64,000 nucleotides of DNA from the sequence record OK272470.1; one strand, given 5' to 3'. The position numbers and the translations under genes are program-made. The notes below the pieces were generated by a model. It did not search any database, was not told the origin of the DNA, and saw only the letters and a program-made list of their open reading frames with translations. Shown piece by piece: positions 11,472-46,956 of this stretch (position 1 is the stretch's first letter; each line of letters opens with the position of its first letter). The DNA comes from Escherichia phage JLBYU50.

Positions 11472-14051
11472 TCAGTGACAACTAGCCCATGAGTTACCAA
11501 CATCGTAACCAGCAGTGAGAGGTACATTAAGATTGTAATACTCACCAGCTTTATTAACAGCAATAGATGCTAATTCTCCAGCACGACTGTAGGCTGTAAA
11601 CCAACCACCTTTCGGAGATTCATGTACGTTAGCCCAAATCTTGCCAGTACGTTTCTCTTCCTCTTCTTTCCAGGTATTAACTTTATCCAAACATTCTTTA
11701 TCAATTTTCTTTTGTTCTTCTGGATCATCAACTTGAGTCCAACCTAAAGATTCTTTAGAGAACCATTTAAAATGCACCAGATCACGAGTTACTTCAAGCT
11801 GTGCTTCATCGTGGTATGCAATCATTTGTTGAACGAATGACTTATTTTTCCAGTCATCAACAAAAAAGTCAACAGCTAATCCTTCTTCTTCGATAAGATC
11901 ATCGTAGATAACCATTGCTCTTTTTGCACAAATAACACCACCACTCTGGAACAGAGAGTTAAGTATTGCGTGTGCAGATCGTGTAGGTACTTTCCTTCCA
12001 TCAATACCAAGAATGTATTTCTTACCTGTTTTAACCCAAAAATCATGCAGACGTTCTTTAAGAAGAGCAAGAGGTTTTGCAGCTTCCCAGAAAGCATCGT
12101 ATACAAGCTGTCCTGTATACATATCACTACCAATGGTTTTTGCTACTTTTGCAGCTTGAGCACCATAAGTAATACCATACTTAACAGATTTAGCAGGGCT
12201 TCGTTCAAACTTACGACCAATAGTATCAGAAATACGTCGAGCCATCATTGTATGAACATCATTAGGTTTTTCCAACAATAGAGCATTACAATATTCGTGT
12301 GGTTCCTGCTCGTACCGCCAACAGTAGTGTGATTCTATTTTTGCCTCAAGAGAATCAAAGTCATAACCAATTTGGAAGTATTTTGGAACTTCTACACCAA
12401 ATAAGTTACGCATTTCATATCCGTACAGAGATGTTACACGTGGGATATTTGCTACTAACCTATGTTTCATACGAGATGTAGCTGCATCACACGTTGCAGC
12501 AGGAGTTGGTATACGACCATCAGCCCTTACTGCTGCCAGATAACCTTTATCGTAATCCTCTTCATCTTCTTCCCAATCAGCACCACCCCCTAAAATAGAG
12601 TTCCTACGGTGTTTATACGTAAGATACTGCACAATCTGCGTAGCATAAGGAAACTTTTCACCTAGTGCTTCCAAGTTAGGACAAATATCTTTCTCTTGCC
12701 CTTTTGTAAAGGAAGGGTTAGTAAGCACTTTAACACCACGACCTTTAGCTTTAGCAATACGATCTCTTAGTTTCCATTCCAAAGTTTCTGGTGTGCACTC
12801 CAGATGATCACATCTGTCCTGGCAGAAGTTAGATGCTAATGTTTGATCAACGTAGTCACGAATAGCTTTCTCCATTTGTGCTTCATCTTTCTTAATCTTA
12901 GTGCCAGATTTAAGAGTGATATCTTTATCTTTATATTCAGATGGACTCCAACCTAAACCAACTAACCAGTTTTTAATATGTGTAGTGTCATCTAAAGTAG
13001 CAGGTACTGTAGGATCACAAATAGGTTCTTCTGCTGGAATAGGGAGTTTAAACTCTTTACCTAATGCAAATAACCACCAACCATCTTCTTTTTGTACAAG
13101 TTCACCAGAATGTTTCTCTGCAAACTTTATCATGTTACTTGAAGGTTCACCATTCTTTTTAAACTGTAGTTTAGGTGGAATGAATGATTTCAAATAACCT
13201 TTAGTAGCAGGTTTGGGAGGTAGTACAGGTTCTGCCTCTAAACGACATGCTTCCATTCGAGCATCCAGATCACGAATATTATCTTCTGCTTGTTTCATAT
13301 TGAAAGCAAAGCCACGGTGCTCTTGACGTGTAATAATATCAGCTACACGTTGTTCTAAGTTAAATGGTTCAGACCACTTATTATAATCACCCCACTCTTC
13401 CATCAAATAACGGAACACTGCGGTGTTAGCTTTGTTATCGTAAATACAGTAATACAGCATATCTGCTGCAAATGTTTTAAATCTTTCAGTTTCAGGAATG
13501 TTTTTTCTAAAATCAATTTTAACATCCCCTCCAGCTTTCTTAGATAACTCTGCCAGACTATGACCACCGAAGCGATCAGGGTTTAGTGTCTTACTTAAGA
13601 TCATAGTATCACAAATTTCAATGTTACTATTACCCCAAGTATTGTACTTAATACTATAGTTGAGTTTAAAAAATAATTTAATTGCCAGTAAGTCGAAGTT
13701 AATGATGTTGTGTCCAACTACTTTGGTAATTTTATAGTTTGAATTACCTTTAAATTTACCTGTTCCATTTACAAAATCAGGAAAATCTTTAAGAGGGAAA
13801 TGGGTATATTCTAAATGCTCATATTCCTCCAGTCGGTATTCATACTTTCCGTCAGTCTCAATATACGGACGACCATCGAAAAGATATTTATCACCATCAT
13901 GGAAAGCAATAATCTCTCCAGTATCATGACTTTCGCACACAATACAGTGCATTGCAAAACTATCTTTTAAACGATATGGACTTGCCAAGTAATCTACACT
14001 TTCGTCATTAAGCAAGTTGTTACTTTCAATGTCGAAAGTAAAAGCTCCCAT
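11472..14051 (-). CDS. DNA polymerase, family A (with 3'-5' exonuclease domain)
   Basis: 859 aa. Exo I motif FDIES at N-terminus. Pol A motif B (KSVKYGITYGAQA) and motif C (YHDEAQLEV). Confidence 0.9.
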   Translation of the reverse strand: MGAFTFDIESNNLLNDESVDYLASPYRLKDSFAMHCIVCESHDTGEIIAFHDGDKYLFDGRPYIETDGKYEYRLEEYEHLEYTHFPLKDFPDFVNGTGKFKGNSNYKITKVVGHNIINFDLLAIKLFFKLNYSIKYNTWGNSNIEICDTMILSKTLNPDRFGGHSLAELSKKAGGDVKIDFRKNIPETERFKTFAADMLYYCIYDNKANTAVFRYLMEEWGDYNKWSEPFNLEQRVADIITRQEHRGFAFNMKQAEDNIRDLDARMEACRLEAEPVLPPKPATKGYLKSFIPPKLQFKKNGEPSSNMIKFAEKHSGELVQKEDGWWLFALGKEFKLPIPAEEPICDPTVPATLDDTTHIKNWLVGLGWSPSEYKDKDITLKSGTKIKKDEAQMEKAIRDYVDQTLASNFCQDRCDHLECTPETLEWKLRDRIAKAKGRGVKVLTNPSFTKGQEKDICPNLEALGEKFPYATQIVQYLTYKHRRNSILGGGADWEEDEEDYDKGYLAAVRADGRIPTPAATCDAATSRMKHRLVANIPRVTSLYGYEMRNLFGVEVPKYFQIGYDFDSLEAKIESHYCWRYEQEPHEYCNALLLEKPNDVHTMMARRISDTIGRKFERSPAKSVKYGITYGAQAAKVAKTIGSDMYTGQLVYDAFWEAAKPLALLKERLHDFWVKTGKKYILGIDGRKVPTRSAHAILNSLFQSGGVICAKRAMVIYDDLIEEEGLAVDFFVDDWKNKSFVQQMIAYHDEAQLEVTRDLVHFKWFSKESLGWTQVDDPEEQKKIDKECLDKVNTWKEEEEKRTGKIWANVHESPKGGWFTAYSRAGELASIAVNKAGEYYNLNVPLTAGYDVGNSWASCH

Positions 14052-26552: not shown

Positions 26553-27143
26553 TTAACGACGACGTGAGCTACTAAAACTACGTTTCGACGAAGAATAACT
26601 TTTCGAAGACTTACTATAAGAGCTAATAGGACTTGAGTAAGACTTACGAGCAGAGTAATCACTATTCACTTTTGTTGTTGATGGGCGTGAATACGTTTGT
26701 ACACTTTGCTGCTTAATTGTGTTTTGTTTAGTGGTTGTATATGTATTTCCTTGTTTATCATAAAAACTATGCTTTTGTGTTGTATATGCTTTGCTATTAG
26801 TTGTAGGAGCAGCGTTGTTATTGATAATTGTTGTATTGCTACCGCCATCTCTATAACCACCACCGCCACTATTACCACTCAACATATGACCAAGAAGCAT
26901 ACCTGTAGCAAACTCACCTACACCAGAAGAACCACTGCCGCCTCCTTGCACAACAACTGTTGAAGGTTGTGCAGGTGCTGCTTGAACAACTTGAGGTGCA
27001 GGTTGATTTACATATTGTTCATCTACCATCTGATTTGGTGTTTGTTGGTAACGTTGATTTTGTACATTTTCAGAATCATCACAACCTACCAGCAATACAC
27101 TACCTAAAACAACTGCAACAATAAAAGATTTAATGTTTTTCAT
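26553..27143 (-). CDS. Lipoprotein with Gly-rich and Ser/Tyr-rich low-complexity regions
   Basis: Start at MKNIKSF after RBS gagggt. Signal peptide with lipobox (LLVGC). Gly-zipper-like segment and Ser-rich basic C-terminus. Confidence 0.5.
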   Translation of the reverse strand: MKNIKSFIVAVVLGSVLLVGCDDSENVQNQRYQQTPNQMVDEQYVNQPAPQVVQAAPAQPSTVVVQGGGSGSSGVGEFATGMLLGHMLSGNSGGGGYRDGGSNTTIINNNAAPTTNSKAYTTQKHSFYDKQGNTYTTTKQNTIKQQSVQTYSRPSTTKVNSDYSARKSYSSPISSYSKSSKSYSSSKRSFSSSRRR

Positions 27144-27336
27144 TTGTAACCCTCTCATTTAAAGTCTCAACACAATTTTTAAAATCCCTAGAGAAACAAT
27201 ACATCTGTTCTCCGTTCCTGTTGATAGTAATTGTATGGTTATCAATATATGTTGTCAAGATAAAAATCAAACAAAACAACCCTAGAGCAAAACAAATATT
27301 TTCAAACAGAATCCAAAGAACACGTAAAACCACCAT
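27130..27336 (-). CDS. Small membrane protein
   Basis: 68 aa with one strongly hydrophobic helix (ICFALGLFCLIFILTTYI). Confidence 0.35.
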   Translation of the reverse strand: MVVLRVLWILFENICFALGLFCLIFILTTYIDNHTITINRNGEQMYCFSRDFKNCVETLNERVTNEKH

Positions 27337-27375
27337 CAGATCACCTCAATAAAGCCCCCGAAGGGGCTTAATGAA

Positions 27376-28353
27376 TTAAGCAACAGCCTGGTCTTCTTTT
27401 TCAGGGAAGATTAAACTTGCAATAACACCCAACCCAAGAGTACCTAACACAATATACATACTGATCGTCGGATCAATGTGTGCTGGTAGGAAACTCACTT
27501 TTGCGTGCAGAGTTTCTGCAAACGGGTGATACATCAGTTTTACACCCACAAATACCAGGACTACGATAACTGCTTTCTCCAGATGAACCAAATACTTCAG
27601 TGCAACACTAAGAACAAAGAACAGAGCGCGTAAACCTAAGATTGCACAGAGCATCGAAGAGAACACCAGCAGAGGTTCTTGTGTCACTGCAATTACTGCT
27701 GGAACAGAGTCTACTGCAAAGATTACGTCAACCATTTCCATTACAAACACACAAACCAGAGCCGGAGTTGCTACACGAACACCATTTTTGATTGTGAAGA
27801 ACTTCTCACCATCCATCTGATCAGATACAGGGAACAGCTTACGAACAATGCGAGTAGCCCAGTGTTTAGAGTAATCAACTTCTGCATCATTATCTCCAGC
27901 GAATACCATTTTAGCCGCACAGAAAAGGATGACAGCACCGAAGAAGATATTAACATACCAGCCCAAACTCAACAAGTAAGTACCTACTGCTACAAACACA
28001 CCTCGGAAGACAATCGCACCTGCAATACCCCAAAGTAGAATCTTGTGTTGCAAGTGTGTGCTTTTAATACCAAAACTTGCGAATACTGCCACAAATACTA
28101 CTAAGTTATCTACAGAAAGAGATTTCTCCAACACATACCCACTCAAGAACAAACTCGCAAAATCAGCACCGTGTTGGAAGTATACAAAACCATAGTAGGC
28201 TAATGATACCCCAATCCAGAAAATTGACCAACCAACTGCCGATTTAAATGAAATCTCTTTGTTTTCTCTGTGTCCAAAGAAATCAATACAAATCGACAAC
28301 ACTAAAATACCCACTAAAACAACCACATCAATAATTGGGAAACCCAGTTGCAT
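27376..28353 (-). CDS. terC: TerC-family integral membrane protein
   Basis: 325 aa polytopic membrane protein. Signature motif EKSLSVDN and several further TM helices. Terminator-like hairpin upstream at 28372-28390. Confidence 0.8.
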   Translation of the reverse strand: MQLGFPIIDVVVLVGILVLSICIDFFGHRENKEISFKSAVGWSIFWIGVSLAYYGFVYFQHGADFASLFLSGYVLEKSLSVDNLVVFVAVFASFGIKSTHLQHKILLWGIAGAIVFRGVFVAVGTYLLSLGWYVNIFFGAVILFCAAKMVFAGDNDAEVDYSKHWATRIVRKLFPVSDQMDGEKFFTIKNGVRVATPALVCVFVMEMVDVIFAVDSVPAVIAVTQEPLLVFSSMLCAILGLRALFFVLSVALKYLVHLEKAVIVVLVFVGVKLMYHPFAETLHAKVSFLPAHIDPTISMYIVLGTLGLGVIASLIFPEKEDQAVA

Positions 28354-28430
28354 TCTTTTCTCCTCTTTAATGCGGAGGACAATCCTCCGCTCTATGTCTT
28401 ATACTATAAACTGTTTTTAAAGAAAGTCAA

Positions 28431-28679
28431 CTAGTTCAGTTCTGTAATTTTAAGTTTATCTTCTTTGTTAATGATAGGGAAAGCTACAGCATCACCTACG
28501 TCATCAATAAAGCAAATAGCAAGGCCACCTTCCACTTTGCTAATCTGACCATTAAAGGCGTGATACGGGGCAGGAACTTGATCTCCATCTTCAAGGAGAA
28601 TAGCCTCGTAAACCTTGCCGATAGTACAATCACGAGTGTTTCTAAATTTTTCAAGCACTTCAACATTTACTTTACGCAT
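28431..28679 (-). CDS. Hypothetical protein
   Basis: Start set to internal ATG (MRKVNVEV...) to avoid overlapping the upstream gene stop. Confidence 0.35.
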   Translation of the reverse strand: MRKVNVEVLEKFRNTRDCTIGKVYEAILLEDGDQVPAPYHAFNGQISKVEGGLAICFIDDVGDAVAFPIINKEDKLKITELN

Positions 28680-28692
28680 ATAAAATCCTCTC

Positions 28693-28899
28693 TTATTTGT
28701 TAGATTGAAAGATACCACGGAGTACCGCAAGAATGAACGTCACACAGACTACACTCCAAAACGTTACAGGAACATGATGCCAGTCTAAGCCGATAATGTC
28801 AATCATATAATTGTATGCTAAAAGCAGTAGCCAACTAGGGATTAACACAATCAAGAACACAACAATAAAACAACCTAATACTGCTAAAACACCTGCCAT
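28693..28899 (-). CDS. Small membrane protein (two predicted TM helices)
   Basis: 68 aa with two hydrophobic segments; holin-like topology cannot be excluded. Confidence 0.4.
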   Translation of the reverse strand: MAGVLAVLGCFIVVFLIVLIPSWLLLLAYNYMIDIIGLDWHHVPVTFWSVVCVTFILAVLRGIFQSNK

Positions 28900-28908
28900 A
28901 CTTTCTCC

Positions 28909-29286
28909 TTATTTCAGTTTGTAAACAATTACATTTAAACCTTTGTTTACTAGAGTTTCTTCGATCATAAGTTTTACAATATTCCAAGAACCTCCAGCCA
29001 AACCACAACCAAGCATTGGTAAACCTACAATTTTACCGCCTGAAGATACAACATCGTCTCCCATACTATCTAGCGCATTGTAGATAGCTTCATAATTCAG
29101 GTCACGCTTACCTTCCTCACGACGACTATAACCATATTGTCCATATAAATTATAAATTGTCAAATTGTTTTCTGTATATTTGGTAAACGTACCTAATTTT
29201 TTATAATCACCACGTTTAGTGGCACAATCTGCTTTAAACGCACCAGGCCACTTGCTTTTAATTTTTGGTGCAATACCACTACCCAT
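28909..29286 (-). CDS. Hypothetical protein with weak macro-domain-like Gly-rich motifs
   Basis: 125 aa. MGSGIAPKI and GCGLAGGSW loosely resemble the phosphate-binding loops of macro (ADP-ribose-binding) domains. Shorter than a canonical macro domain; tentative. Confidence 0.3.
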   Translation of the reverse strand: MGSGIAPKIKSKWPGAFKADCATKRGDYKKLGTFTKYTENNLTIYNLYGQYGYSRREEGKRDLNYEAIYNALDSMGDDVVSSGGKIVGLPMLGCGLAGGSWNIVKLMIEETLVNKGLNVIVYKLK

Positions 29287-30232
29287 AGTGCAAAAACAGT
29301 TGAAGATGCTCTTCTCCTGACTTATGGTCTACAGCTACAACATAACGATTACCGCTAAACAAACCTTGTGCTGTCATACCGTCAATATCGGTATCTGCCG
29401 AAACATCTCCTGTACGATCTACACCGTTAACTTTCAGGAGTTTAACTTCTTTTGCAGCATAGCGGTGTTCAGTAATACTGATACCCATTAATGCAAGTGC
29501 ATCAGAGAATTTGTCATTAGGGTAACGGTTAAGTTCTTCTACTAGTGACTGAACAATATCAAAGTTCAAGTCCACGGAAAGATTATAAAGCGTTTCAAAA
29601 TCTGGTAAAAAGGCTTTGTTCTCCAGATTTTTAGCCAGATAGTCATCCATAGTAGCTTTAGGTAGTTTCTTATAGCTAAAGCTGTAGAAAATACGGCTAG
29701 GACGATTACGCAAAAATTCTGATACATAACCATCATTTTTAGTCAATACAAACAGCTTGTCATAGCCACCAACACCATCCAGCAGGGTAAGCAAACCATC
29801 CTGTGCATCTTTTTCAGCATACAGTTTATCAAATTCATCGATCATAATCATCACAGGTTGTGTGATTTTAGACATAAAATTGATAAAGCCTTCACCATTA
29901 AAAGCACTACCGATAGAAATAGTAGGAATACCCATTTCACGAAGAGCAGAAGATAGCATTTTAGCTTGCAAAGTTTTACCGCTACCCTTCGTACCCTCAA
30001 GGAGAACACCTGTGTTTTTACCTTTGCGGCTAAGGAACGTCTTGATAATACGTTCTGATTTATCATCAGTATCACCGTATGTTACTGAAGGGACTTCCAT
30101 ATCGTTTTTAGGATACAGGAAGAACTCACCACTTTGAGTAACACCTACACCAAAAGTTCCTGCTGGAATTTCTTCAATATCTGTACCAGACTTCTGACGC
30201 AGGAAGATTTGATTGCCGAATACTGTAAACAT
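29279..30232 (-). CDS. AAA-family ATPase (paralog A)
   Basis: 317 aa. Walker A GTKGSGKT, Walker B MIMIDEFDK, classical-AAA second region LLTLLDG and NRPSR. About 45% identical by eye to 44210-45337. Confidence 0.7.
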   Translation of the reverse strand: MFTVFGNQIFLRQKSGTDIEEIPAGTFGVGVTQSGEFFLYPKNDMEVPSVTYGDTDDKSERIIKTFLSRKGKNTGVLLEGTKGSGKTLQAKMLSSALREMGIPTISIGSAFNGEGFINFMSKITQPVMIMIDEFDKLYAEKDAQDGLLTLLDGVGGYDKLFVLTKNDGYVSEFLRNRPSRIFYSFSYKKLPKATMDDYLAKNLENKAFLPDFETLYNLSVDLNFDIVQSLVEELNRYPNDKFSDALALMGISITEHRYAAKEVKLLKVNGVDRTGDVSADTDIDGMTAQGLFSGNRYVVAVDHKSGEEHLQLFLHYG

Positions 30233-30252: not shown

Positions 30253-30723
30253 TTAGTCAGATTCCCAAATGTTGTCTTTCTTAACCCACATTCGTTGATT
30301 ATCTGAACCTCTATAACGTTTCGTTGTTGGTTGATTCATATCATACTTACCATCTATCACTATGTCAACCAGTTTTTTAATTTTTTCTGGAATTTCTTCA
30401 AAAAGATATCCTGTATATAAGACAATATCTTTTTTGTTTCCAAAACAATCTCTTACCTTTTCAAGAACATACTCTACAGTATCAATGTTCTCTTTGTCAA
30501 GAGGTTCACCACCTAAAACTGTTAATCCTTTAATGAAAGGTCGAGATAAATCTTTCAAGATAAGATCTAATGTTTCAGTAGTGAACTCTTGTCCGTAGTT
30601 ATACGACCAGGCTTTCTGGTTAAAGCAGCCACGGCAACCGTGGCTACAACCGCTCACCCACAAAGAGCATCTTACACCGTCACCGTTGAGCATGTCAACA
30701 GGTTCATATCCGGCGTAATTCAA
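30253..30723 (-). CDS. nrdG: Anaerobic ribonucleotide reductase activating protein (radical SAM)
   Basis: 156 aa. Radical-SAM CxxxCxxC cluster (CSHGCRGC). Directly downstream of the NrdD-like gene with a 4-nt overlap. Confidence 0.85.
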   Translation of the reverse strand: MNYAGYEPVDMLNGDGVRCSLWVSGCSHGCRGCFNQKAWSYNYGQEFTTETLDLILKDLSRPFIKGLTVLGGEPLDKENIDTVEYVLEKVRDCFGNKKDIVLYTGYLFEEIPEKIKKLVDIVIDGKYDMNQPTTKRYRGSDNQRMWVKKDNIWESD

Positions 30724-32519
30724 AAATGTTTCTCCCTTTCTAATACTTCTTGCATTTTACCTTTATTATAAGGGCGAGAGTTAGGGGCAGAAAGGTATCC
30801 TGACACTCTTCTGATCACAGATATGGATTCTTCTTCATGATTACCGCAACTTGGACACTCGAAGCCTTTAGCCGTTGCTTTAAATTCACCATGAAAACCA
30901 CATTTGAAACACTGATCTACAGGTTGGTTCACGCCAAAATAAGGAATTTTATTGTAGGCATAATCTACAAGAGTTTCCAGTGCTTGCAAGTTATTTTTAA
31001 GGTTTGGTGTTTCTACATAACCTATGTTCCCACCATTACTAATTTGTGCAAAACCTTCCTCATAATCCCACTTTTGGAACGGGGTAGTGTGCATCCACAC
31101 AGGTTGATGGAAAGAGTTTGTCAAGTAGTCACGATCAATAGAACCAGGATAGCGATCATTTAATGCTTTGGCAAATTTATAGCACAAGGATTCTGCTGGT
31201 GTTCCATACAAACTAAAAGCTAAACCAGAACGTTCTTTAAATGTGCCACAGATATCCTTCATATATTGAAGGATGTTTTTACCCATTGCTTTTGGATTGG
31301 TGTTACCTGGGTATAAAATCTCCATAGCTTCTGCTAAACCTACGTAACCGATACTAATAGAGGCATAACCACCTTCGAATAGTTTACCAATCTCTTCATT
31401 AGCTTCTAGTCGAGCTAAAGCCCCTTCCATAAACAATGTAGGGTTTTGAGATGCTTTGGTATGTCTAATACGGTTAACACGTAGCATATGTGCCTTATAC
31501 GCCATCTCCATATGTTGTTCCAACAGTTCAGTAAATAAGATGCCCTTTTCACGGGACTCTGCTGCAATGATAGGTAAGTTTAAAGAAACTACGCCTAAGT
31601 TGAAACGACCATCATATTTTTCACCTTGCTCTGTTGCATAGTATGACAAGAAGCTACGGCAACCCATGCTTGTGACGCGACCATCTGAAGATCCTGTAAC
31701 CTCTTTGTTTAAAGGTACAGAGATAAAATCAGGATAAATGCGTTCAGCACAACACTCCATTGCCAGTTGCTTCAAATCATAGTTTGGATCGCCAGCTTTC
31801 ATGTTAACACCATCTTCCAAGAAGAAGATAACTTTAGGAAACACAGGAGTTACTCTATCTTTTCCCAACCCTTGTTTGTGCACCATTAGGTAGTTTTTAG
31901 TGATCATTCTACCAAAAGCAGAGGTATCCAAGCCTAAACTAATTGTTATAAAAGGTGACTGACCATTTACACTCATTAGAGTGTTCACCTGGTAGATTAA
32001 AGTTTGCATTGCATCATAGACCTGTTTATCTACCATACGCATAGCAATATCATAATCACCAACATCAGCATATATTTTATTAAAACTTGCTTTAACGTAT
32101 TGACTAAGCCCAGTATCAACATGTGCACAAGTTTGTCCACCATATTGGCTAGAAGCTACTGCTTGAATAATTTGAGTTAGGACAGTAGTCGCTACACCGA
32201 TAGATTTTGGTTTTTCAATATGTGCATTACCAATACGGAAACCGTTCTCAAGCATATCTTGGTAATTTACCAGGCAACAATTAGTTAAAGGTGAGAGTAA
32301 ATAATCTAAATCGTGGATGTGACCATACCCACTTTTATGCCATTCTGCTAAATCTTCAGGTAAAATATGGGTCATTGCCATGTGCTTGCTTAGGATACCT
32401 GCTAGTAAATCTCGGTGAGTATTAACAATCATTGCAGGTTTGTTTGCATTTTCACGAGTAAATTCTTCGGATGTTTGTTCGAGGAATCCGATTACATCCT
32501 CATATAGTTTTTGGGTCAT
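30720..32519 (-). CDS. nrdD: Anaerobic ribonucleoside-triphosphate reductase (class III RNR)
   Basis: 599 aa. C-terminal Zn-ribbon (CFKC...CPSC) followed by the glycyl-radical motif RRVSGY. Confidence 0.9.
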   Translation of the reverse strand: MTQKLYEDVIGFLEQTSEEFTRENANKPAMIVNTHRDLLAGILSKHMAMTHILPEDLAEWHKSGYGHIHDLDYLLSPLTNCCLVNYQDMLENGFRIGNAHIEKPKSIGVATTVLTQIIQAVASSQYGGQTCAHVDTGLSQYVKASFNKIYADVGDYDIAMRMVDKQVYDAMQTLIYQVNTLMSVNGQSPFITISLGLDTSAFGRMITKNYLMVHKQGLGKDRVTPVFPKVIFFLEDGVNMKAGDPNYDLKQLAMECCAERIYPDFISVPLNKEVTGSSDGRVTSMGCRSFLSYYATEQGEKYDGRFNLGVVSLNLPIIAAESREKGILFTELLEQHMEMAYKAHMLRVNRIRHTKASQNPTLFMEGALARLEANEEIGKLFEGGYASISIGYVGLAEAMEILYPGNTNPKAMGKNILQYMKDICGTFKERSGLAFSLYGTPAESLCYKFAKALNDRYPGSIDRDYLTNSFHQPVWMHTTPFQKWDYEEGFAQISNGGNIGYVETPNLKNNLQALETLVDYAYNKIPYFGVNQPVDQCFKCGFHGEFKATAKGFECPSCGNHEEESISVIRRVSGYLSAPNSRPYNKGKMQEVLEREKHF

Positions 32520-43552: not shown

Positions 43553-43760
43553 AATACAGACGGGAGAAAGGTATGAGTTTCTTTGTTACAGTATTTATGG
43601 CTATCTGGATTGTAGTCTCACTCGTTCTTTTCCTGGTGGGTTGTCTGGAAGAGATTAAGAAAGCGGTTATTTGCGGTTTCTTTGGCTTTATTATCTCTCC
43701 TGCCTGGATGTGGTTCTTCATTATGATTGGTTTCCTTAAAAGGTAAGTGAGGAATAAAGA

Positions 43761-44198
43761 ATGAGTAAAACAAACGCAATCGCAGATAAAGCAACTGATG
43801 TACTTCTGAACATGGTTAACGTCACTATTCAAACAATGAGTGATGTTGTGGAGTTTGGAAAACAACAAATTCCAGAAGTAATCCATCAATTATTAGTGTG
43901 GAAAGCAGTATCCGCAGGTTTATGGCAACTTTTTGGTATTTGCTTTATGTTTATTACTTTTATTGCTGTGCGGAACCTCGTAAAAGCAATTAAAGATAAA
44001 GAATGCCTGTGGTCACGAGATCGCTATGGTGAAGTATCTGCTTTACCTATTGTTGGTCTTGTTGTCTGTGCTTTCTTTTTCTTTTTAGGATTTGTTATTT
44101 TCTTTTCGAATTTTGATTGGCTAAAAATCATTATTGCACCAAAAGTGTATCTGATTGAATTTGCTGCTGATTTAATTCGTTCATCTCAACAAAAATAA
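43761..44198 (+). CDS. Membrane protein
   Basis: 145 aa with several hydrophobic helices. Confidence 0.45.
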   Translation: MSKTNAIADKATDVLLNMVNVTIQTMSDVVEFGKQQIPEVIHQLLVWKAVSAGLWQLFGICFMFITFIAVRNLVKAIKDKECLWSRDRYGEVSALPIVGLVVCAFFFFLGFVIFFSNFDWLKIIIAPKVYLIEFAADLIRSSQQK

Positions 44199-44209: not shown

Positions 44210-45337
44210 ATGAAATACACGATTTATGGTGATATTGTAAGTGTAAATAAAGATATGGGCGTGGAATCTAACTATCTTCCACCTGGATTCTATACTGTTA
44301 GTCGTGATCCCCTTGGCAATTATTTTTTAAGCCGTGGTAATCTGACAGGTGTACCGGATGTTTTGTATGGTGAAACAGAAAAACGAGCAAATCACGTTAT
44401 CCGTACATTCCATCGCCGGAGTGCACAAGGTAAAAACACAGGCTTGCTTCTGACAGGAACTAAGGGCAGTGGTAAAACTATGTTAGCCAAACTCATTAGT
44501 CGTGACCTTGTAGAAGAAGGTATTCCAACTATTATGGTTACTCAAGCCTACAGTGATGCTAATTTCATTGAACTTATTAGCAAGATCACCGACAAAGCAG
44601 TGATTATTTTTGACGAGTTTGATAAAGTGTATGAGAAGAAACAAGATCAAGAAGCACTTCTCACTTTGTTAGATGGTACTGGCAGTGGTAATAAACTGTT
44701 TATTCTGACTAAAAACAGTGGTTTTATTTCTGAATTCTTTTTAAATCGTCCTAGTCGTGTGTTTTATAATTTTAATTATGATAAAATCTCACTAGAAACT
44801 ATGATTGACTATTTAGATAAAAACCTAGATAACAAAGCACACTTTGATAATTTCCAAAGACTTTGGGATGTAAGTTTAGAGTTGTCCTTTGATGTGATCC
44901 AAGGTATAGTAGAAGAACTTAATTTCTACCCTGATTTATCCTTTAAAGAATGCATCTCTATGATGGGCGTTTCTTTAGGTGGTGGTAATAAATGGGATAT
45001 CAGCAGTGTTGTTATTAATGGGAAACTTCAGAAAGTTAGCTGGGTATCTAGTTGGCATAACTTTACACCTGCAATCTTTTTAGGTGGCTCGTGCACACTA
45101 GACGTGTACTTGTCATCTCCAAGTGATGCAGACTCTAAAGAAGCCCTTGCTAATAGCTCTTACGTGGTTTTTGATGATGAAGGAGATGCTCGAATTCCAT
45201 TGAATGCGACAAAAATGAAAGCAGATCTTATTACAGGCGGTAAAATCGTTGTGTTTAGTGATGATCCAGAAGATTCTTTCCGTATTGTTCTGGAGCCAAC
45301 TATCACCAATGGTGCAACTTTGGCAAGTGTGTTTTAA
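44210..45337 (+). CDS. AAA-family ATPase (paralog B)
   Basis: 375 aa. Walker A GTKGSGKT, Walker B IIFDEFDK, LLTLLDG, NRPSR; colinear with the - strand paralog at 29279-30232. Terminator at 45353-45378. Confidence 0.7.
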   Translation: MKYTIYGDIVSVNKDMGVESNYLPPGFYTVSRDPLGNYFLSRGNLTGVPDVLYGETEKRANHVIRTFHRRSAQGKNTGLLLTGTKGSGKTMLAKLISRDLVEEGIPTIMVTQAYSDANFIELISKITDKAVIIFDEFDKVYEKKQDQEALLTLLDGTGSGNKLFILTKNSGFISEFFLNRPSRVFYNFNYDKISLETMIDYLDKNLDNKAHFDNFQRLWDVSLELSFDVIQGIVEELNFYPDLSFKECISMMGVSLGGGNKWDISSVVINGKLQKVSWVSSWHNFTPAIFLGGSCTLDVYLSSPSDADSKEALANSSYVVFDDEGDARIPLNATKMKADLITGGKIVVFSDDPEDSFRIVLEPTITNGATLASVF

Positions 45338-45352
45338 GTAAGCCAGCAAATA

Positions 45353-45378
45353 AAAACCCGCTTCGGCGGGTTTTCTTG
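45353..45378 (+). terminator. Rho-independent terminator after AAA ATPase paralog B
   Basis: AACCCGC-TTCG-GCGGGTT followed by TTCTTG. Confidence 0.55.
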
Positions 45379-45411: not shown

Positions 45412-46404
45412 ATGGGAACACCAAAATCATGGGAACAATATAAAGAAGAATTAACACCTCTTGCTAAAAATCGCAATATTCAAATCCTGGGTTATGTTGG
45501 TGAATGGAAAGGGAATAAAACAAAACTTGATTTGTTGTGTCATTGTGGGTATAGATGGCAAAGTACAGCTATTACGGACTTTAAACGTGGTGGTGGTTGC
45601 CCCAGTTGTAATTTAGATAGCTTACGCAAACGTATAATCATCCCTGACGATCAACACATACAAGATTTCATGAATACTGGCGCTTTCCAACCAGGAACCA
45701 TCTTCATCAATACAGGGGAACGTACTGGAAATAGTGACAGTATTTGGTGTATAAAATGTCCTATTTGCTCATACGACGAATATGTACAAGCTGGAGTATG
45801 TGATGGTAAGTTTTATTCTACAAAGAGTAGTCTTAAAAACGGGAGTCTCGCTTGTCGTTGTTCTACACGTTATGTGTTTAGCGATCAGCAGTTAACATAC
45901 CGCATGAGAAAGGAGTTGCAGAAAAAAGATTTGATTTTTATTGAATGGGTAGGCAAACCTTCTGTAAGATTAGGTAAGTTTAAATATCTTTGTCTTGTAC
46001 ATGGGGAGCAGATAGGGAGTGCTAGTAACTTATTAAGCCACGGTCGAGGTTGTCCTATGTGTGCTGGTCATAGTCAGCAGCAGTTATATATTAATATTGT
46101 TAAGGATGATAATATTATAGTTGCTCTTAAGTTTGGTATAGCTAAAGATAGTGATAGGCGATTAAACATTCAAAATAGCCGTAATCTGTTTTTTATGGAA
46201 CGTATTTGTTTATATGATTTTAGCACAGTGAAACAGTGTAAGGCTGCTGAAAGAGCTATAAAGAAAAAATTAAAAACTGGTATTTTAACAGCAAGAGAGT
46301 TGAAAGACGGTCATACAGAAACAGTAAGTGTTTCTGATTTGGAAAATCTTCAAAAAATTATTACACAATATGGTGGCAAATTAGTATATAGTAAGGAGGT
46401 GTAA
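45412..46404 (+). CDS. Zn-ribbon repeat protein with C-terminal T5orf172/GIY-YIG-like domain
   Basis: 330 aa. Three Cys clusters (CHCGYRW...CPSC; CIKCPIC; GRGCPMC). C-terminal FGIAKDSDRRLNIQNSRNL resembles the T5orf172 motif (IGRT.N...RL...). Tentative. Confidence 0.45.
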   Translation: MGTPKSWEQYKEELTPLAKNRNIQILGYVGEWKGNKTKLDLLCHCGYRWQSTAITDFKRGGGCPSCNLDSLRKRIIIPDDQHIQDFMNTGAFQPGTIFINTGERTGNSDSIWCIKCPICSYDEYVQAGVCDGKFYSTKSSLKNGSLACRCSTRYVFSDQQLTYRMRKELQKKDLIFIEWVGKPSVRLGKFKYLCLVHGEQIGSASNLLSHGRGCPMCAGHSQQQLYINIVKDDNIIVALKFGIAKDSDRRLNIQNSRNLFFMERICLYDFSTVKQCKAAERAIKKKLKTGILTARELKDGHTETVSVSDLENLQKIITQYGGKLVYSKEV

Positions 46405-46956
46405 ATGCGGATTACTGATAAGTATGTGTTCTTCTTTTCAGCAAAAGATGAATTTAGCAACTGGTATCTATCATCTTTTATTGAACCTTTAGCTCCCAAG
46501 TATAATAATTCTATTACAAGTTCTGTTGAATTTACTTGTGTGGAACAATATATGATGTGGAGAAAAGCATGTTTATTTTATGATTACAACATTGCATCTT
46601 CTATTTTAACCGGAGATCTAAGATATACAGGAGAAAAAGAACAAGCATATTATAAGCGACTAGGCAGATTAGTTAAAGATTATGATGAAGATACCTGGAC
46701 TTCTTTACGGGAGAAGATTGTCAAACGTGGTTTGTATCTTAAATACACACAAAATGAAGATCTCAAAAATAAACTTATAGCCTACGCAGATAAGGAGTTC
46801 GTAGAGGCAAGCCCTTATGATTCTATTTATGGTATCAAAATGGGGATGTGGGATCGGGACGTGGAAAATAAGGATTGTTGGAAAGGACAAAATCTTTTAG
46901 GAAAATGGCATACAGACCTTGCTGTTTATCTAAAAGCACAATCTGATATTTCCTGA
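46405..46956 (+). CDS. NADAR-family protein (YbiA-like)
   Basis: 183 aa. Blocks YVFFFSAKDEFSNWY, CVEQYMMWRKACLF, EASPYDSIYGI match NADAR/DUF1768 (F..FSNFY ... EQ.YM..KA ... EASP.D.IWGIG). Confidence 0.7.
   Translation: MRITDKYVFFFSAKDEFSNWYLSSFIEPLAPKYNNSITSSVEFTCVEQYMMWRKACLFYDYNIASSILTGDLRYTGEKEQAYYKRLGRLVKDYDEDTWTSLREKIVKRGLYLKYTQNEDLKNKLIAYADKEFVEASPYDSIYGIKMGMWDRDVENKDCWKGQNLLGKWHTDLAVYLKAQSDIS

Follow-up and report, generated by a model that had tools for sequence, protein, structure and literature searches.

Two paralogous classical-AAA ATPases of Escherichia phage JLBYU50, one of them truncated by a strain-specific deletion, belong to a widespread phage protein family

Introduction

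The closest described relatives of the proteins considered here are Phi92_gp190 and Phi92_gp221 of phage phi92, for which the phi92 annotation gives only 'predicted AAA fold; putative ATPase or Zn metalloprotease' and no assigned function beyond that. In this study, we analysed 64,000 nucleotides (hereafter the window) of Escherichia phage JLBYU50 (OK272470.1), a phi92-like coliphage (Justusliebigvirus, Stephanstirmvirinae) with 98-99% identity to its relatives, in which two genes of this kind, encoding ATPase A and ATPase B, are located on opposite strands. Neither protein is new as such, as both entered the databases with the phi92 genome, have carried the label 'ATPase' since then and are catalogued in PHROG 2376; the observation of the pair is real but ordinary, or ordinary to modestly interesting.

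A full-text literature search retrieved no functional study of gp190, gp221 or the PHROG 2376 family, and neither gp190 nor gp221 is mentioned in the 2026 paper on the whole-virion structure of phi92. The PhageMaP genome-wide essentiality screen used Bas63, a Felixounavirus (PMC11482910), and the HIDEN-SEQ screen used Bas54, a member of Vequintavirinae (bioRxiv 10.1101/2025.11.20.689424). Neither Felixounavirus nor Vequintavirinae was found among the records in which we detected homologs by tblastn.

Results and discussion

Paralogy of the two ATPases

Both open reading frames (ORFs) proposed in an initial annotation of the window were recovered, A at 29279-30232 on the minus strand and B at 44210-45337 on the plus strand. 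B (375 aa, intact) is 100% identical to Phi92_gp221, and this sequence is present, residue for residue, on 323 contigs. A (317 aa; GenBank UGL62108.1) is a 3'-truncated ortholog of Phi92_gp190, which it matches over residues 1-310 except for two substitutions; the phi92 protein (386 aa) is longer by its last 76 residues.

The two proteins were aligned colinearly by BLASTP over 254 aa with 47% identity and 70% positives (E = 5e-83), which bears out the paralogy that had been proposed for them and extends the homology far past the P-loop. The motifs GTKGSGKT, DEFDK, LLTLLDG and NRPSR occur in A and B alike. The first of these had been described as an unusual Walker A. It does differ from GPPGTGKT, the usual form in classical AAA proteins, and is a family-wide signature, but it obeys the canonical GxxxxGK[ST] pattern. 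Both proteins also matched the PHROG 2376 "ATPase" profile over most of their length, A with E = 9.8e-104 (residues 1-286 on profile positions 2-288 of 363) and B with E = 6.6e-108 (residues 1-367 on positions 1-357). We regard A and B as true duplicates within one phage ATPase family.

A minimal variant of the classical AAA clade

The initial assignment of both proteins to the classical AAA group was upheld by two kinds of searches. Pfam PF00004 scored 30.0 bits for A and 38.9 bits for B (gathering cut-off 21.2), and the best 60 PDB matches of the family profile were all classical-clade proteins, with p97/Cdc48 D2 (E = 5e-13) in first place and VAT, AFG2, NVL/Rix7 and Bcs1 among the others. 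Several features of classical AAA proteins are present as well, that is, Walker A GxxxxGK[ST], Walker B hhhhDE, the sensor-1 Asn and R-P-x-R, together with the lack of a sensor-2 Arg. Judged from these sequence features, the family is a minimal, short-looped variant of the classical AAA clade.

Several other identities were considered and rejected. The FtsH-like or Zn-metalloprotease annotation carried by several GenBank entries does not agree with the absence of HExxH, of any transmembrane segment and of a peptidase among the Pfam matches shown. A packaging ATPase was ruled out by the motifs and by scores far under the cut-offs. Matches of B residues 201-291 to the influenza NS1 effector domain (E ~1e-3) were treated as spurious; in the model of B this stretch comprises the helical lid and the start of the C-terminal domain, and NS1 was gone from the top of the profile search. 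PADLOC defence models gave no meaningful match, the best being mad8 (E = 8.5e-4, 16.9 bits) in the P-loop region only.

The relationship to AAA+ loaders needs closer consideration. It has to be asked whether A and B could be nucleic-acid-directed loaders or initiators with a part in replicating or recombining phage DNA, of the kind represented by DnaC, Hda or the clamp loaders. Their minimal core and short loops would suit such a role, and weak hidden Markov model (HMM) matches were obtained to the clamp loader phrog_168 (2.6e-5 and 1.2e-8), DnaC-like phrog_50 (1.2e-6), Hda (3.9e-7) and PRK08116 (1.6e-6). In Acinetobacter phage Bestia, moreover, the gene comes directly after those for primase/helicase and DNA polymerase. 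However, these HMM scores are far under the curated cut-offs (29.8 vs 194.8 bits for Hda and 27.5 vs 189 for PRK08116), and there were no loaders or initiators among the best 60 PDB profile matches. The arginine motif of A and B (NRPSR) follows the R-P-x-R of classical AAA proteins and not SRC, and Asp228 occupies the place where loaders have the sensor-2 Arg. The structural model of B contains no initiator-specific insert, and its C-terminal domain is beta-rich instead of forming a helical collar. In addition, the N-terminal domain, lid and C-terminal domain are acidic (isoelectric point 4.1-4.9), and the gene lies outside the replication module in most phages. We consider a loader function unlikely, and neither a clamp-loader nor a packaging-ATPase identity fits A and B.

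Domain architecture and conserved residues

To describe the domains we used an AlphaFold2 model of B (54 homologs, mean predicted local distance difference test score 88.4) and residue counts over 141 mutually diverse family members, all given in B numbering. The model divides B into four parts. The first is a family-specific N-terminal beta domain (aa 1-55; 44210-44374, plus strand) with five strands at residues 3-43, in which G7, P24, L40, Y53 and G54 are nearly invariant; its profile found nothing in PDB below E = 0.5. A non-ATPase N-terminal domain of about 80 aa had been proposed for both proteins. Such a domain does exist in both, but it amounts to only some 45-55 aa of beta strands, as helix 56-72 already belongs to the AAA fold.

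The AAA core (aa 56-192; 44375-44785, plus strand) extends from helix 56-72 to strand 186-190. It carries Walker A at G83-T90, Walker B at D135/E136, the sensor-1 residue N169 and R180-P-S-R183 of the second region of homology. All 141 members have K89, E136, N169, R180, P181 and R183, and 140 of them have D135. A short motif just after beta2, reading Y114-x-D116 in B, resembles a pore loop. An aromatic residue or His occupies position 114 in 123 of the 141 members (F in 46, W in 34, Y in 24 and H in 19), Gly occupies position 116 in 136, and HMMER aligns this aromatic-x-Gly motif on the pore-loop-1 'WFG' of p97 D2. Only 6 residues separate beta2 (107-110) from helix 117-125, with no separate helix modelled there. 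A and B are soluble, acidic proteins with all residues for ATP binding, hydrolysis and inter-subunit arginine-finger sensing, and a shortened aromatic-x-Gly loop is kept at what corresponds to the pore-loop-1 position.

The lid (aa 193-254; 44786-44971, plus strand) is modelled as four helices within 195-252. F227-D228 is invariant at the sensor-2 position, at the start of helix 227-239, and we equate it with a motif of the 'GAD' type rather than 'GAR'. R239, the sole conserved basic lid residue of the family, closes the same helix. This position (window 44924-44926) falls at the end of lid helix alpha7, within the motif EELN-R-Y. A and 138 of 141 members have Arg there, B has Phe, and the B-type clade as a whole has either Phe or Ala.

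The last part is a beta-rich C-terminal domain (aa 255-375; 44972-45334, plus strand) with strands within 262-363 in the model. It had no PDB match and is the most divergent part of the family. Its homology could nevertheless be followed by hhalign, at 97% between A and a third clade (the P0024 group), at 97% between B and the same clade, and at 75% probability (E = 2.6e-5), with a colinear alignment, between A and B directly. The beta-rich C-terminal domain is, as far as such profile comparisons can tell, ancestral to A and B. Identity between full-length A and B is 28% in the N-terminal domain, 56% in the AAA core, 45% in the lid and 15% in the C-terminal domain, and mean column conservation is 0.25 in the C-terminal domain vs 0.63 in the AAA core. 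The suggestion of divergent substrate domains agrees with this pattern, as divergence is concentrated in the accessory domains, which would fit different partner specificities. No HExxH motif or hydrophobic segment was detected in A or B (maximum 19-residue hydropathy ~1.0).

A 2,460-bp deletion truncates ATPase A

B had been credited with an extra C-terminal domain of about 130 aa. When the window was compared by BLAST with the phi92 locus (L001), it became clear that A is truncated instead. Window positions 27001-29301 correspond to L001 239-2540, and 29302-31000 correspond to L001 5001-6699; together with the phi92 annotation, this mapping places a deletion junction at 29301/29302, where 2,460 bp are missing relative to phi92. 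The deletion takes the last 76 codons of A, the whole orthologs of gp189 (helix-turn-helix), gp188 (51-aa ORF), gp187 (hydrolase) and gp186 (putative phosphoribosyltransferase), and the first ~113 codons of the gp185 ortholog. Residues 311-317 of A are encoded by 7 out-of-frame codons of the macro-domain gene, which are followed by a stop. Full-length A has 386 aa in all 14 other members listed for its 90% cluster. Because the C-terminal domain of full-length A is homologous to that of B and was cut by the deletion, B does not possess an extra domain.

The deletion removed roughly the C-terminal half of the C-terminal domain of A and probably cripples the protein. Based on the A/B alignment and the model of B, the lost part would comprise one helix and the last four strands. 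The same arrangement of A, with the deletion junction, was also found in the Logan assembly SRR25464451. Among 54 related phage records there was none that spanned the junction, a 27-mer across it had no match in IMG/VR, and no microhomology was found at the deletion ends.

What remains of the gp185 ortholog is a macro-domain remnant (28909-29286, minus strand), 125 aa representing the C-terminal part of the 238-aa phi92 protein. Its PF01661 match starts at profile position 10 (in the phi92 protein, the macro match covers residues 106-217), and its start codon (ATG) overlaps with the stop codon that A has newly acquired. A had been said to follow a macro-like ORF; this ORF is in fact the gp185 fragment, it lies downstream of A, and the adjacency was made by the deletion. 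The same event explains why A now adjoins not only the remnant but also a 68-aa membrane ORF and a TerC-like protein. In phi92, five soluble-protein genes intervene, and the proposed placement of A beside small membrane proteins does not hold for the intact locus. Comparison with phi92 and the 386-aa homologs indicates that a deletion peculiar to this strain produced the contrasts claimed earlier, namely the extra C-terminal domain, the macro neighbour and the presence of membrane proteins next to A.

The TerC-family integral membrane protein (325 aa; 27376-28353, minus strand) is located downstream of the deletion and is the ortholog of phi92 gp182 ('tellurium resistance'). Such an auxiliary gene is unusual in a lytic phage.

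Distribution and history of the family

A search with the family profile against 50%-identity clusters detected 8,570 representatives at E <= 1e-3 and 3,330 at E <= 1e-30, with the best matches covering the whole profile and a median length of 371 aa. By tblastn, homologs were found in 372 phage records with hosts ranging from Escherichia to Enterococcus, Bacillus and Lactococcus. They included Stephanstirmvirinae, Herelleviridae (EF24C, Brochothrix A9 and Bacillus BCP8-2), Lactococcus 949-like phages, phages of Aeromonas, Acinetobacter and Proteus, and jumbo phages of Erwinia and Yersinia. Foldseek searches of BFVD returned only unnamed phage homologs at first, among them proteins of Agrobacterium Atu_ph07 and, at a greater distance, of crAss-like phages; Bcs1-like AAA proteins of giant viruses came next.

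Two copies were observed in Justusliebigvirus genomes and in one Klebsiella phage. Phapecoctavirus genomes have only a syntenic B-type copy, and in Phapecoctavirus ESCO13 this single copy is 64.5% identical to B. In a neighbour-joining tree built on the N-terminal domain, AAA core and lid, the B clade was sister to the A clade plus the third clade, all inside one Stephanstirmvirinae-like group. This topology supports a duplication within the lineage, as far as the aligned domains reveal it. Since Phapecoctavirus genomes hold the B-type copy only, the best reading is that B represents the copy conserved across the subfamily Stephanstirmvirinae and that A would be an accessory, lineage-specific duplicate.

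An accessory copy that is readily lost, being absent from Phapecoctavirus and truncated in JLBYU50, is also what one would expect of an anti-defence or host-takeover effector, as had been proposed at the outset. Here, the C-terminal domain of each paralog would capture a host protein of its own, such as an oligomeric immune complex, which would then be dismantled in an ATP-driven manner. The fast evolution of the C-terminal domain described above is consistent with this explanation, and so is the position of the genes among early-type, auxiliary and ADP-ribose-processing genes (macro and NADAR). A precedent exists in the Bas54 study, where the MoxR-type ATPase bas54_0063 was required against the defence system DS-28 (10.1101/2025.11.20.689424), although this protein belongs to a different AAA+ family. 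On the other hand, the same conserved N-terminal domain occurs in phages of Gram-positive and Gram-negative hosts, which points to a conserved rather than strain-specific target. The PADLOC result offers no support for such a role, and the literature search found no escape-mutant or knock-out data. We regard the anti-defence explanation, which is a specialisation of the remodelling mechanism proposed below, as a tentative possibility with perhaps one chance in four.

Gene neighbourhoods

Directly upstream of A and on the same strand is nrdG (30253-30723, minus strand), preceded by nrdD (30720-32519, minus strand). A sigma-70-like site at 30340-30368 (minus strand; TTGACA, 17-nt spacer, TATGAT; 11/12 matches) is embedded in the 3'-terminal part of nrdG, ~110 nt before the start of A. 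This site could serve A as a promoter of its own; it comes from a consensus scan only, and the count of such sites in the region is not clearly above the shuffled expectation. The nrdD gene is an uninterrupted ORF of 599 aa in the window. phi92 holds an extra ~288 bp (L001 7352-7639) at the place corresponding to window 31653-31661, and its annotation joins the two nrdD pieces as a 'spliced variant'; the window lacks this intervening sequence, and no Rfam intron model matched anywhere in the window. ARAGORN and Rfam searches over the whole 64,000 nt revealed no tRNA and no RNA family. Thus, the 'hypothetical tRNA' annotated in phi92 inside gene 190 on the opposite strand (L001 5203-5290) has no support in the near-identical window sequence.

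Two small membrane-protein ORFs of 57 and 145 aa (43573-44198, plus strand) lie upstream of B. They have hydrophobic segments and no Pfam match. The second of them (43761-44198) had been noticed before and is real, with two hydrophobic segments. A GC-rich, terminator-like hairpin at 45353-45374 (plus strand; 9-bp stem with 5 GC pairs), identified by consensus scan only, follows the B stop by 16 nt, and B appears to close its transcription unit.

The two membrane ORFs directly upstream of B raise the question of whether A and B could serve, together with small membrane proteins, as a membrane-associated assembly or extraction machine similar to FtsH, Bcs1 or Msp1. GenBank labels such as 'FtsH-like protease' and 'ATPase or Zn metalloprotease' would agree with this, and so would the SPFH/Band_7 protein that adjoins the gene in SE131 and lies nearby in L009. 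However, the ATPases themselves have no transmembrane segment, no HExxH and no detectable peptidase domain, and A came to lie close to membrane proteins through the deletion. In ESCO13, SE131, L008, L009 and L010, the ORFs upstream of the gene differ from those at 43573-44198 and are mostly soluble, and membrane neighbours are absent in most other lineages. The proposed link to membrane proteins is not borne out by these data, and we consider a membrane machine very unlikely.

Directly downstream of B, a gene for an endonuclease with CapR homology and a T5orf172 (GIY-YIG-like) domain (45412-46404) is followed by one for a NADAR-domain protein (46405-46956). The endonuclease region is ~90.6% identical to phage VivaForever, vs ~98% for its surroundings, and lacks ~160 bp, which points to a different number of CapR repeats or to a mobile gene. 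NADAR and the macro remnant beside A are the two genes for ADP-ribose-processing enzymes in the region.

The gene contexts differed widely in other lineages. Family members were found next to class I ribonucleotide reductase (RNR) genes and tRNAs (EF24C), tRNAs (phage 949), NAD-salvage genes and an SPFH protein (SE131 and L009), the replication genes of phage Bestia mentioned above and, elsewhere, runs of small genes of no known function. No common partner gene was identified across 14 loci from different lineages, and the regions were always non-structural. Two recurrences were noticed. An SPFH/Band_7 membrane protein was next to or near a family member twice (SE131, L003 6280-7200; L009 4358-5152), and a protein of ~495 aa with a DUF2828 annotation or a faint VWA_CoxE match was nearby twice (Aeromonas LAh_8, L013 6693-8189; L010 10485-11972). 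Both could be due to chance. Beside the genes in the window there was no clear Band_7 or DUF2828/VWA-like homolog; the best Band_7 tblastn match had E = 0.008 at 12864-13169.

Proposed function

Our overall reading is that A and B are ring-forming, ATP-driven protein remodellers. Its descriptive part is near certain, the remodelling part is held with moderate confidence, and taken together we give the reading an even chance. A and B would form rings in which ATP drives the remodelling or unfolding of a protein substrate in a non-structural (early or middle) phase of infection. Such timing would agree with the RNR, NAD-salvage, tRNA, replication and small early-type genes near family members. 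The N-terminal domain may provide a function common to the whole family, and the fast-evolving C-terminal domain may set partner specificity, such that the partners of A and B would differ. B would then be the indispensable or ancestral copy and A an accessory one.

Several points weigh against this reading. Ring formation and ATPase activity are inferences, as is the nature of the substrate, and no conserved partner gene indicates what the substrate might be. Pore-loop-1 and pore-loop-2 are both much shorter than in proven translocases, the pore-loop-2 segment being ~12 residues shorter than in p97, and the best structural matches include NSF D2, a non-translocating oligomerisation domain. 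Because of these short loops and the resemblance to NSF D2, caution is needed with regard to true substrate threading. Finally, full-length A seems dispensable for propagation, but the viability of JLBYU50 without intact A is an assumption drawn from its deposition as a phage genome.

A much broader scenario can be imagined, in which PHROG 2376 would represent a 'viral unfoldase' that is nearly ubiquitous in large virulent phages but has gone unrecognised, consisting of a minimal classical AAA ring with a new-fold C-terminal domain that recruits specific targets. The duplicates of phi92-like phages might form hetero-rings or dismantle two host complexes, such as oligomeric immune sensors, and the family might serve as a general ATP-driven takeover or anti-defence device with a reach comparable to that of Ocr-type inhibitors. 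We think this scenario improbable in its full extent.

The family deserves attention in any case. At least 3,300 clusters at 50% identity share an invariant catalytic apparatus and two domains without solved relatives, with no reported function. Phages of therapeutic type that carry members infect E. coli, Klebsiella, Enterococcus, Staphylococcus, Bacillus and Lactococcus. JLBYU50, as a natural A-truncated mutant, and the B-only Phapecoctavirus phages provide a low-cost genetic starting point. If the proteins do prove to be phage-encoded unfoldases, a role would be found for a 'dark-matter' gene that is common among large lytic phages.

Comparison with known systems

Beyond the phi92 proteins, the closest known systems are p97/VCP/Cdc48 D2, VAT, AFG2/SPATA5 and NVL/Rix7, with which the phage proteins are colinear through Walker A, 'WFG', Walker B, LLT..DG, sensor 1 and R-P-G-R. 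Unlike this group, they have a single AAA domain, unrelated N- and C-terminal domains and shorter pore loops, and identity is only ~17-20%. The AAA domain of Bcs1, bacterial Trip13/Pch2 (CBASS-associated) and NSF D2 are also among the closest systems. Classical AAA motifs are held in common with FtsH, but A and B are devoid of its transmembrane helices, M41 peptidase domain and HExxH. With phage clamp loaders (T4 gp44-type) and DnaC-like loaders they share the P-loop AAA+ core and weak profile matches (E 1e-5 to 1e-8), which are ~100 orders of magnitude weaker than those to PHROG 2376, and A and B are distinguished from these loaders by the lack of SRC, sensor-2 Arg, collar and insert.

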